Assembly (NCBI GenBank): GCA_029856525.1
Contig: JAHQXC010000024.1
Coordinates: 1-17,049, forward strand
Direction: 5' to 3'
DNA length: 17,049 bases
Source of the DNA: Candidatus Odinarchaeia archaeon
GTDB lineage: Archaea; Asgardarchaeota; Odinarchaeia; Odinarchaeales; Odinarchaeaceae
The notes beneath the pieces were generated by a model. That model saw only the letters and a list, made by a program, of their open reading frames with translations. It searched no databases and was not told where the DNA came from. Both the position numbers and the translations under genes were made by a program. Position 1 is the first letter of the stretch. The number at the start of each line of letters is the position of its first letter. Below, one piece after another: positions 14,487 through 16,860 of the stretch.

Positions 14487-15011
14487 TTAACAGTGTTGAG
14501 AGATTAGAGAAGCAGCGATTTCTATAAAAACCCTTTCTATATTAAACCCGGTCTTAGAGGAGACCGGGATAAATTCTTTTAACCCGTATTTTTTAACTAA
14601 TTCGATTATCTGATCTGAATAGGGGTTATCGTTTATTAAATCAGATTTAGAACCGACTAAGATTATCGGTATCTCACGAGTATTCTGTTTGACGAGCTCA
14701 ATCCATTCAGGTAAAGCTAGAAAAGTCGAGAACCTGCTTTGATCGAATACTATGATAGCCCCCTGAGCGCCTTTACAGAAAGATGGTAGAAGAGTTCTAA
14801 AACGATCCTCTCCTCCTAAATCCCAGATCTGCATTTTAACAGTTACACCGTTTAAGTTTACAGTCGCTATTGCGAAGGAGACGCCTATAGTGGTTTTACT
14901 GTTAGTGAACTGGCCTGTTACATATCTTTTTATAAGCGTAGTCTTTCCGACACCACCCTCGCCGACAACTATGATCTTGTAGAGTCGTTGATAGCTGCTC
15001 ATCTTCGTCAC
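14487..15011 (-). CDS. Rab-like small GTPase (Ras superfamily); alternative start ATG 15002
   Basis: G1 GEGGVGKT, G2 TTIGV, G3 WDLGG, G4 SKSD, G5 SSK. RabF-like segments IGVSF, KMQIW, RFRTLL, FCKGA and IVFDQS. Confidence 0.92.
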   Translation of the reverse strand: MTKMSSYQRLYKIIVVGEGGVGKTTLIKRYVTGQFTNSKTTIGVSFAIATVNLNGVTVKMQIWDLGGEDRFRTLLPSFCKGAQGAIIVFDQSRFSTFLALPEWIELVKQNTREIPIILVGSKSDLINDNPYSDQIIELVKKYGLKEFIPVSSKTGFNIERVFIEIAASLISQHC

Positions 15012-15027
15012 TGATTAAGTAGTATAA

Positions 15028-16350
15028 CTACGGAATTAATTTGTATCTCATGCTAATTAACTTTTCCAAACTAGAAGAATCAGATGGAATAAACTCGTAT
15101 TTTACGTTAACGATAGGGTAATCCCTGTTTAATATTAATTTCAGATCCGCAGGGGTAGCTGATACAATCACATCGAAATCTGAGTTTTCAATAGTTTCAA
15201 CGAAATCTTTTATCTGCTGTTCATTATATCCTATAGCTGGGAGAACACGCCCAATATGCGGGTATATTCTGTAAATCTCTCTAAGAAGTCCTTTAGCGAA
15301 TGGTCTCGGATCGATTACAACACCCTCCCGCTCCATGGAATAAGCGTAAGCTGCTCCGAAGCTTAGCCCACCGTGAGTTATTGAAGGACCGTCTTCAATA
15401 GCTAAAACTTTTTTACCTTTCAATGAGAGTTCAGGCTCCCCTTTCTTCGCTAACACACCTTCAACTATTTCAGCTTTAGGATTCAAAACAGCAGCGTGAT
15501 CATATATTCTTTTAATATTCTCTTTAGGTGAAATATCCGTTTTAGTTATCACTATAATATCAGCTCTTCTAAAGTTCACTTCACTAGGGTAATATTCAAC
15601 TATATGATCCGGTCTCAATCCGTCTACCACCACAATATTTAAATCTGTTTCATAAAATGGAAAATCATTATTTCCCCCATCCCATATAATGAAATCCCCT
15701 TCACGCTCAGCATAGTTAAGGACCCTACCGTAATCGACACCGGTATAAACTGTGAAGCCTGCTCTAATATGAGGCTCGATATCCTCACGCTCCTCTACAC
15801 TACACTTATAATCATCTAAATCTTTTAAAGATGCGAATCTTTGAACAATACTACCAGCTAAGTCCCCGTAAGGCATAGGGTGCCTAACAATAATCGGCTT
15901 AAAACCTCGCTCCCTCAGAAGACGCGCAATATAACGTGTTACAGGAGATTTACCTACACCCGTCCTCACACCGCATATTGAAATAGATTTAACCGTTGGT
16001 TTAAGCATAGTTGACCCAGGAGATAATAAAATAAAGTCGCAGCCGAGTGATTGAACTAAAGCAGCTTTAGAAAGCAGATCTCTATAGGATACATCGCTAT
16101 AAGAGAAAAACACAGCCTTAACATTATACTTTATAATTAACTCCTTCAACATACTTTCACTGTAAACAGGGATACCTTTAGGATACCTTCTTCCACTTAA
16201 TTCAGGAGGATAAACCCTATTATCAACACCTGGAATTTGAGCTGCTGTAAAAGCCACTATATTATATAGTGGATTCTCTCTAAAGTAGACATTAAAATTA
16301 TGAAAATCTCTTCCAGCAGCCCCCATTATTATAGCGTTAACGCTCTTCAA
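15028..16350 (-). CDS. COG2403-family P-loop ATP-dependent ligase (usually annotated cyclic 2,3-diphosphoglycerate synthetase/'GTPase'; resembles arginine synthetase ArcE)
   Basis: IMGAAGRDFHNFN, TAAQIP, YPPEL, YSDVS, P-loop VRTGVGKS, VRHPMPYGDL, EERE, WDGGNNDFPF, IEDGPSITHGG, DPRP and LPAIGY. TTG start after GGGGGAAG. Confidence 0.8.
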   Translation of the reverse strand: MKSVNAIIMGAAGRDFHNFNVYFRENPLYNIVAFTAAQIPGVDNRVYPPELSGRRYPKGIPVYSESMLKELIIKYNVKAVFFSYSDVSYRDLLSKAALVQSLGCDFILLSPGSTMLKPTVKSISICGVRTGVGKSPVTRYIARLLRERGFKPIIVRHPMPYGDLAGSIVQRFASLKDLDDYKCSVEEREDIEPHIRAGFTVYTGVDYGRVLNYAEREGDFIIWDGGNNDFPFYETDLNIVVVDGLRPDHIVEYYPSEVNFRRADIIVITKTDISPKENIKRIYDHAAVLNPKAEIVEGVLAKKGEPELSLKGKKVLAIEDGPSITHGGLSFGAAYAYSMEREGVVIDPRPFAKGLLREIYRIYPHIGRVLPAIGYNEQQIKDFVETIENSDFDVIVSATPADLKLILNRDYPIVNVKYEFIPSDSSSLEKLISMRYKLIP

Positions 16351-16374: not shown

Positions 16375-16860
16375 TTACTCTGTTTGAGCGCGCATCTTAG
16401 TGAAAAGCTGTTTAAGCTCCGTGTTAAGAGCCTGCCTTATATTTATAGGGTTAATAGGTTGAGCGGCTGGGGGAGGCGGTGAAGCTGCGGGAGGAGGAGG
16501 GGTAACCTGTTGAGAAAATGTTGTAGGGGTGTGAACGTATTCCTCGGAAGGAGGAGCCTCCTCTTCAAGAGACTCATCTAAGATAACGGGTTTTCTACTC
16601 GGAGCGGTTGTTGGCTGAACAACCGGTTTAACAATCTGAGGCTTAACCGCGTTTAACCCTATCATATTAATCTTCTGTTCGAGAGCTGAGATACGTTGAT
16701 TAACTGAATTACTTAAATTATTAAGATTCTGCTCAAGCATATCAACAGCGTTAATAACGATTTCAAGGGTTCTAGTTAGTATCATCGCTAATTCCTGAAT
16801 TTGTTTATTAACAGATTGCCCGGATATATGTGAGAGAAGATCAGAGAAGTCGTCACTCAT
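16375..16860 (-). CDS. Hypothetical protein: N-terminal coiled coil, proline-rich linker, C-terminal amphipathic (WH2-like) helix
   Basis: 161 aa with SD AAGGTG. Heptad-patterned residues about 18-68, then PPPPAAS-PPPPAAQ, then IRQALNTELKQLFTKMR. Ends 24 nt before the next gene. Confidence 0.8.
   Translation of the reverse strand: MSDDFSDLLSHISGQSVNKQIQELAMILTRTLEIVINAVDMLEQNLNNLSNSVNQRISALEQKINMIGLNAVKPQIVKPVVQPTTAPSRKPVILDESLEEEAPPSEEYVHTPTTFSQQVTPPPPAASPPPPAAQPINPINIRQALNTELKQLFTKMRAQTE

Follow-up and report, generated by a model that had tools for sequence, protein, structure and literature searches.

The window analysed here, the whole of contig JAHQXC010000024.1 (17,049 nucleotides), is a complete contig from an Odinarchaeial genome with an estimated completeness of 93%. 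It carries a gene, P0001, whose product is the Odinarchaeial (Odin) member of a previously undescribed protein family that seems to be restricted to Asgard archaea. The parts of the gene and the two genes that follow it are listed in Table 1. A preliminary description, made from the sequence of the window, had pointed out four features in the predicted protein, and all of them are found there: a heptad coiled coil that ends in VNQRISALEQKINMI (residues 53-67), an acidic patch, DESLEEEAPPSEEY (residues 95-108), a tandem polyproline of the form PPPPAAS/PPPPAAQ (residues 121-134), and a terminal amphipathic helix, IRQALNTELKQLFTKMR (residues 141-157). The open reading frame and these features are far beyond chance. 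From the Odin alignment AlphaFold2 models three helices, at residues 2-15, 18-68 and 138-160, the last with a predicted local confidence (pLDDT) near 85, and the C-terminal helix has a computed hydrophobic moment (muH) of 0.41 and a net charge of +3. In alignments the coiled-coil residues 19-47 are nearly invariant among Odin members, and the acidic patch is kept within Odin only.

Table 1. Positions in the window of P0001, its parts and the two genes downstream.
Feature	Position	Strand	Description and basis
Whole gene P0001	16375..16860	minus	161 codons plus stop, ATG start; open reading frame list, translation, homologs
N-terminal motif, residues 1-15	16816..16860	minus	M-S-D-D-F-x-x-L-L..., acidic-aromatic short helix; alignments, predicted helix 2-15
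Long coiled-coil helix, residues 18-68	16657..16809	minus	AlphaFold2 pLDDT 95-98 (Odin alignment), alignment, PDB profile matches
Variable disordered linker, residues 69-137	16450..16656	minus	24% Pro, acidic patch, two PPPP runs; disordered over 70-130, AlphaFold2 pLDDT <50 (Odin alignment)
C-terminal helix, putative docking helix, residues 138-161	16378..16449	minus	P-I-N-P-I-N cap, then R-x-A-L-N-x-E-L-K-x-L-F-x-K-M-R
440-aa P-loop NTPase, downstream, co-directional	15028..16350	minus	24 nt past the P0001 stop
174-aa Ras/Rab-like small GTPase, third of the trio	14487..15011	minus	16 nt after the P-loop gene; PF00071 Ras, E = 5.5e-37

P0001 shares 71% identity with OdinLCB4_005915 of LCB_4, and the hidden Markov model of the family recovers it at E = 3.9e-49 with every family motif present. 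The first searches, both word-indexed and exhaustive at the protein level, returned Odin relatives only, and shorter relatives with the same plan were found later in Helarchaeota, Lokiarchaeota and others. A 15-sequence profile matches proteins in 252 of 400 Asgard genomes, and a 43-member profile does so in 111 of the 121 genomes with a completeness of at least 92%, spanning 38 of 43 genera, with a single copy in most genomes. Neither Pfam nor NCBIfam has a model that covers the family, the NCBIfam search with P0001 came back empty, and the nearest clusters in the ESM Atlas are unnamed Asgard hypothetical proteins (score 0.93), with no usable named cluster among them.

The members share a plan of four parts, comprising an N-terminal acidic-Phe motif, a coil of about 50 residues, a variable Pro-rich disordered linker and a C-terminal helix. 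The N-terminal motif, [DE][DE][FY]xx(x)LL, is kept throughout the family in the alignments, as is the hydrophobic pattern of the coil across 43 diverse members, and over the same set the length of the linker ranges between 43 and 86 residues and its proline content between 7 and 37%. While the proline-richness of the linker is general, runs of four or more prolines occur in 14 of the 43 members and runs of five or more in nine, and the members from the Asgard families f21 and f22 have tracts of the PPPPPG type. The residues that never vary, E148, L149, K150 and F153, are confined to the terminal helix, where R142 and L152 are also kept in at least 90% of the members. No other part of the protein is conserved so well, so that one of the outcomes that would have counted against the preliminary description, a terminal helix without conservation, did not occur. 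Its mean computed properties in the family are a muH of 0.37, a hydrophobicity (H) of 0.21 and a net charge of +3.3, and several members outside the Heimdallarchaeaceae (Heimdall) continue into DDDDDD or EE tails, with one f11 member ending in K-G-W-D-E-E-K. When the other open reading frames of the P0001 genome were searched for an E-L-K-x-x-F tail, chance look-alikes alone came up, such as a GalT-like enzyme that ends in ELRRFFGG. The extreme invariance of the C-terminal helix next to a linker that is free to vary suggests an equally conserved protein partner, as opposed to a purely physico-chemical role.

A physico-chemical role is what is required if the C-terminal helix is a membrane-targeting sequence of the MinD/FtsA type that gains avidity from oligomerisation, which we regard as unlikely. 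Like those sequences, the helix is amphipathic and basic, it lies at the extreme C-terminus past a flexible linker, and its L-K-x-L-F pattern is reminiscent of the tail of Escherichia coli MinD; in the GTPase fusions described below it also occupies the C-terminal place that is the usual site of membrane anchors. However, the invariant Glu and Lys would be unusual in a lipid-binding helix, as such helices conserve physical character and not residue identity, its hydrophobicity is modest, and the strongly acidic tails of the Heimdall proteins and the acidic tails found elsewhere would be poorly suited to anionic membranes. Still less probable, in our estimation, is that the helix folds back into the grooves of an N-terminal trimer to give a trimer of hairpins, and thus a closed structural or auto-inhibited particle. 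This would agree with the joint conservation of coil and helix around a free linker, with the extra hydrophobic residues beyond the a and d positions at residues 19-47, with the 3-4 hydrophobic spacing of the C-terminal helix (the best PDB matches to its profile are the heptads of designed coiled coils), with recurrent weak matches to the heptad regions of viral fusion proteins, and with the linker of only about 23 residues that suffices in the fusion paralogs. Yet the N-terminal part has no invariant residue that could pair with the invariant Glu and Lys of the helix, the viral matches are all at the level of noise, and the monomer model has no confident packing (predicted template modelling score, pTM, 0.33).

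The preliminary description had read P0001 as a miniature forerunner of the WAVE or WASH complexes, with a coil like that of BRK1 or CCDC53. The BRK1 alignment that it proposed is reproduced by HMMER in the same register, with residues 43-69 of the query against residues 44-70 of BRK1. When the N-terminal profile is searched against all PDB sequences, BRK1 (3p8c_E) is found at E = 0.014 and 18.4 bits, at about rank 36, and with the full-length profile it is absent from the PDB matches. The roughly 35 coiled coils that outscore it, the best at 8.4e-7, include designed peptides, GCN4-adhesin fusions, reovirus sigma-1 and a phage needle. Since these are unrelated coiled coils and mostly trimeric, the likeness to BRK1 is generic, and the trimeric state of the better-scoring proteins is a weak hint that the P0001 coil may trimerise as well. 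For CCDC53 (PF10152) a Pfam scan of P0001 has no match at E ≤ 1, nor do the Odin, f21 and f22 members have one at E ≤ 0.02. Across the family CCDC53 ranks third, with matches in 14 of the 43 members that are all below threshold (best E = 8.6e-5), after Baculo_PEP_C (21 of 43) and DUF1664 (17 of 43). Hence the profile score for BRK1 is no better than those of unrelated coiled coils, and the same seems to apply to CCDC53 in P0001 and across most of the family, an outcome that the preliminary description had itself listed as counting against its reading.

Fold comparison of the P0001 model found nothing significant. The top matches of a Foldseek search against the Swiss-Prot AlphaFold models, none of them below E = 0.9, are to a coiled coil with Pro-rich stretches in formins, HSF and MADS proteins, and BRK1, WASHC3 (CCDC53) and ABI are missing from the first 30. 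A lone row in the PDB search, to the Abi2 subunit of the WAVE complex (3p8c_F; E = 4.6, probability 0.16, root-mean-square deviation 32 Å), is considered a chance match because the Swiss-Prot search lends it no support. For the C-terminal helix, the sole natural protein matched by its profile in the PDB is the start of the WH2 helix of cordon-bleu from an actin complex, which at E = 5.5 is not significant, and phmmer searches of the PDB with two C-termini gave no matches.

The orthologs from Heimdallarchaeaceae (269-321 aa) are where the family comes closest to its proposed eukaryotic counterparts. Their profile aligns with that of the family over the N-terminal motif and the coil (hhalign Prob 97.1, E = 7.3e-11), with a DDY..LL motif in register with the family N-terminal motif, and they end with the same terminal helix followed by an acidic tail. 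The linker between them has acquired a conserved helix followed by L-Q-K-A-P, then a second motif, [DS]-I-Q-x-[IV]-[RK]-x-G-L-[KT]-K-V-D, in which the L, K and D are invariant and the V is present in at least 90%, and thereafter a basic segment, the family helix once more (A-L-N-x-E-V-K-x-A-L), a patch of K-R-K and an acidic segment with Phe at its end. By eye this resembles a WH2-WH2-C-A layout, one that profile methods do not detect, and L-[KT]-K-V directly follows R-x-G, two residues closer than in WH2 domains of the WASP type. The claim of a WH2-like helix holds in part, as the Heimdall orthologs do have WH2-like LKKV motifs and acidic tails but no member of the family matches the WH2 model PF02205. 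Among individual Heimdall genes (P0041-P0056; for example L099:996-1952, minus strand, and L100:1508-2443, plus strand) there are A-P-N-L-S repeats and two or three WH2-like helices with LQKA or LKKV. The repeats number three each in G016 (L100) and G015 (L099) and two in P0041, which points to recent repeat gain or loss.

These orthologs also provide the best case for common ancestry between the N-terminal helix and CCDC53 or BRK1, which would be compatible with an adaptor for actin but which we think improbable. CCDC53 is the top, if marginal, Pfam match of four of the seven Heimdall orthologs. Scores of 25.5, 21, 17.1 and 14.8 bits are recorded among these orthologs, one of them above the gathering score of 24.6 bits, and P0041 is tagged PF10152 in its source database too. 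On the other side, the Heimdall helix alone reaches only 17.1 bits against CCDC53, and a phmmer search of the PDB with one Heimdall ortholog found haemagglutinin and other coiled coils only, at E > 0.2; the rank of BRK1 among unrelated coils, the members that lack any CCDC53 match and the fold searches described above all argue in the same direction. Membership in BRK1, CCDC53 or WH2 is not established by these sequence comparisons. The earlier interpretation thus finds partial support when read as an analogy but is not supported when read as homology: its three-part architecture is real and extends throughout the phylum, while the proposed kinship with BRK1 and CCDC53 is not borne out and the Pfam WH2 model finds no match.

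A second line of evidence links the family to small GTPases. P0001, the P-loop gene and the Ras-like GTPase gene follow one another in the same order in three further Odin genomes (L001, L002 and L004), and the P-loop gene stands between the other two in all Odin genomes seen. The 440-aa P-loop protein has weak matches of the HypB/CobW/LpxK type only and no Pfam family above the cut-off. No RNA data are listed for the Odin trio, and the sole sequencing run with the trio is the probable source metagenome. In f22, the largest sampled Asgard family, paralogs of 409-422 aa have an Arf/Rag-like GTPase domain (PF00025, ~1e-20) fused to a miniature coil and C-terminal helix separated by a linker of only about 23 residues; they are recovered by the family profile at 2e-11 (hmmsearch) with both modules in order, and they occur in at least a dozen genomes. 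Examples (L103:1455-2711, minus strand; L104:606-1832, plus strand; three copies in L113) have an N-terminal region of about 130 residues that is helix-hairpin-helix-like by eye, and in one genome, G170, three copies are clustered in a 5-kb stretch.

In Helarchaeota (L007:8966-10384 and L010:8862-10438) there are two tandem copies of the family gene that are 1-11 nt apart, and these hint at hetero-oligomers. The tandem is preceded by a conserved gene of 162-184 aa without a Pfam match, the 162-aa version of which (P0039) is Roadblock-like by eye only, its model having a mean pLDDT of 42.6, and it is followed on the opposite strand by a V4R/Roadblock gene, an apolipoprotein-like coiled-coil protein of about 1120 aa and a SNAP/TPR-like protein of about 625 aa. 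Further Robl_LC7 genes lie within 8 kb of the tandem. It is accordingly possible, if rather doubtful, that the family constitutes a small-GTPase module, in which the coil oligomerises and the C-terminal helix docks onto a GTPase of the Ras/Arf family or onto a Roadblock partner, so that the protein would serve as an effector, a helper of a GTPase-activating protein or guanine nucleotide exchange factor, or a scaffold, and would make no direct contact with actin. The trio kept in four Odin genomes, the fusions in f22 and the Roadblock genes beside the Helarchaeota tandem all favor such a module. However, a GTPase or Roadblock neighbor is absent in most lineages, each Asgard genome has many GTPase and Roadblock genes so that proximity is partly a matter of chance, and, given the broad synteny among Odin genomes, the four trios do not count as independent cases.

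We tentatively favor, while holding it somewhat short of an even chance, the proposal that the P0001 family are oligomeric adaptors that present docking helices, most likely to actin and under the control of GTPases. The N-terminal acidic-Phe motif and the coil of about 50 residues would assemble a homo-oligomer, probably a trimer, from which each subunit would extend a flexible Pro-rich tether ending in the invariant amphipathic helix, and this helix would be the docking peptide for a very conserved partner. If that partner is actin, the helix may insert in the barbed-end cleft, as do WH2 and WASP 'C' helices, and the oligomer could gather or deliver several actin subunits in the manner of Ena/VASP or of the WH2/C part of WASP-family proteins. 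Control would be exerted by small GTPases, Ras-like ones in the Odin trio and Arf/Rag-like ones fused to the module elsewhere. Actin is preferred because, with a mean column identity of 81% in 23 Asgard genomes, it is the most conserved candidate partner and because it suits the Pro-rich tether, the WH2-like insertions of the Heimdall orthologs and the cordon-bleu match. GTPases control WASP-family proteins and formins in eukaryotes, which fits with the coupling proposed here. The proposal is that the family may work like such proteins, and it makes no claim of membership in WH2, BRK1 or CCDC53.

Several results weigh against an actin-directed adaptor. No actin-binding family is matched significantly in either sequence or fold, the Foldseek result above included. 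The WH2 model PF02205 is unmatched at E ≤ 10 by the final 40 residues in a diverse set of 10 members, by the Heimdall repeats and by the full-length proteins, although HMMER filters may mask very weak WH2 matches, and a profile of the WH2-like half of the Heimdall orthologs finds no WH2 or VCA protein in the PDB. P0001 itself has no LKK[TV] motif, with L-F-T-K-M-R in that place, and its polyproline runs are not conserved across the family. Actin, profilin and gelsolin are absent from all of the approximately 30 gene neighborhoods examined, and a GTPase fusion would be equally consistent with a membrane anchor or with a helix that binds GTPases. Moreover, polyproline is reportedly not bound by the Odin profilin (PMC8410842).

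Comparison with eukaryotic systems places the adaptor proposal in context. The WAVE/Abi/BRK1 and WASH1/FAM21/CCDC53 assemblies have the same order of parts as the family, with a short helix for assembly first, a Pro-rich region next and an amphipathic helix at the end, together with a link to small GTPases, and the Heimdall orthologs add WH2-like LKKV motifs, a basic patch, acidic tails and the marginal top match to CCDC53. In contrast to these five-subunit complexes, the family is represented by one small polypeptide that is probably a homo-oligomer, P0001 lacks both LKKT and an acidic-Trp tail, and there is no significant profile match. The family is not known to have Sra1/Nap1 or SWIP/strumpellin partners, and Asgard archaea are not known to have a complete Arp2/3 complex. 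For the standalone protein the closest functional analogy is Ena/VASP, whose parts are a Pro-rich region, a G-actin-binding WH2-like motif and a tetramerisation coiled coil; the P0001 protein likewise would be a coiled-coil oligomer with several Pro-rich arms, each of which ends in a short basic amphipathic helix. The order of the parts is nevertheless reversed, with the coil of the family being N-terminal, and the family lacks an EVH1 domain, the F-actin-binding motif and any detected homology. With the WH2 motifs of cordon-bleu and Spire the family shares the beginning of its helix, R-x-A-[LI]-x-x-x-[LI]-[KR], and in the Heimdall orthologs I-x-x-[IV]-R-x-G-L-K-K-V, but the distance from helix to LKKV is shorter in the latter, and P0001 has L-F-x-K-[MLR] instead.

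It is against this background that the evolutionary claim of the preliminary description can be assessed. In its strong form the family would be an archaeal forerunner of the eukaryotic WASP-family module, with a CCDC53/BRK1-type assembly helix, a Pro-rich tether, a WH2/C-type actin-binding helix and, already in Heimdallarchaeia, acidic tails. We consider this form unlikely to be correct. The adaptor proposal is best filed, by analogy, with adaptors that combine an oligomeric coil, a Pro-rich tether and a terminal docking helix, as seen in Ena/VASP and the WASP-family complexes.

The wider gene neighborhoods raise one further possibility, a connection to the ESCRT machinery. In Odin and in f6 the family gene lies 6-8 genes from Vps4 and two ESCRT-III genes, and these are the only lineages where this is so. 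An 'AAA' cluster that appeared to extend the Vps4 link to five lineages turned out to be mixed, with true Vps4 in Odin and f6 and Cdc48 or plain AAA proteins elsewhere. The C-terminal helix could then be a motif of the MIM1 kind, either recruiting the MIT domain of Vps4 or being handled by it. Like the ESCRT-III MIM1 motif, which binds that domain, and like the C-terminal peptide of arcadin-2, which binds the hydrophobic groove of crenactin, it is a conserved helix that follows a disordered linker and lies at the very end of the protein. The last 16 residues also resemble the tail of the Odin ESCRT-IIIA (x-x-E-L-x-x-x-hydrophobic-x-K-M-basic, at an equal distance from the end), the Odin members fit the hydrophobic spacing of the MIM1 consensus (D/E)xxLxxRLxxL(K/R) at L149, F153, M156 and R157, and a P-I-x-P-I cap precedes the helix. 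Of the alternatives considered here, however, this ESCRT role appears to us the least probable. The residues of the MIM1 consensus are not those that the family conserves: Leu stands at the Arg position, conservation falls neither there nor on the final Leu/Lys positions, the +7 hydrophobic residue is lost in members from lineages other than Odin, the invariant E, K and F are off the consensus, and the linkage is missing in all other lineages.

Neighborhood clustering over 26 loci gave no shared operon partner for the family. The usual neighbors elsewhere are an Elf1-like protein, a tRNA endonuclease, PhoU_div and metabolic genes. The nearest conserved neighbor in f21 and f22 is a protein of about 200 aa with an Elf1-type zinc ribbon (PF05129, 7e-18) and a long extension (L049:8527-9144, minus strand; L048:7238-7858, plus strand), and in f21 its gene is co-directional with and directly upstream of the family gene. 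In the other Odin genomes (L001:1-9854, L004 and L002) the genes upstream of the family gene, in a region that lies past the end of the window, encode a membrane protein with a VTT/DedA domain, then UbiA, a transporter of the MFS type, a longin-Arf-like GTPase and an OB-fold protein, with the entire ESCRT cluster (Vps28, EAP30, Vps25, Vps4 and two ESCRT-III) further upstream.

The actin genes of Odin show some irregularities of their own. In the closed Odin genome (L064/L071; G303:C1:534567-535773) the actin frame shifts near the 3' end, giving a 386-aa open reading frame with an unrelated tail, while a different frame encodes the final 39 profile positions; this may reflect an assembly error or a real frameshift. 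The gene is intact in G301 (394 aa), and in the genome of P0001 itself it is split over two contig ends (G000 contigs C3 and C8). There is, in addition, a second group of paralogs of the P0001 family, of 304-444 aa (L101:960-1910, L102:635-1966 and L114:536-1447, all on the minus strand), which shares the N-terminal coil and has a different conserved tail, V-P-D-N-W-L-P ... K-Y-Y-N-P-K ... K-D-I-F, and the paralog at L102 has a long K-G-K-D-K-D repeat.

The P0001 family is real, ancient within the Asgard archaea and experimentally tractable, and it is among the most widespread of the families that are seemingly restricted to this group. In the literature consulted, the Asgard actin regulators described are profilin and gelsolin-type proteins only (PMC12050087, PMC9433394, PMC8410842). 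The layout of the family is that of eukaryotic actin-assembly factors and is more eukaryote-like in Heimdallarchaeaceae, and its tie to small GTPases is a physical one, an operon in one lineage and a gene fusion in another. At 160 residues, of which 20 make up an invariant peptide, the protein offers an easy experimental handle on core Asgard cell biology, whatever its partner proves to be. If the partner is actin, the family would bear directly on the origin of the WASP, WAVE and WASH systems, and if it is indeed a forerunner of them, Asgard archaea would have had a GTPase-coupled actin assembly factor that predates the eukaryotes.

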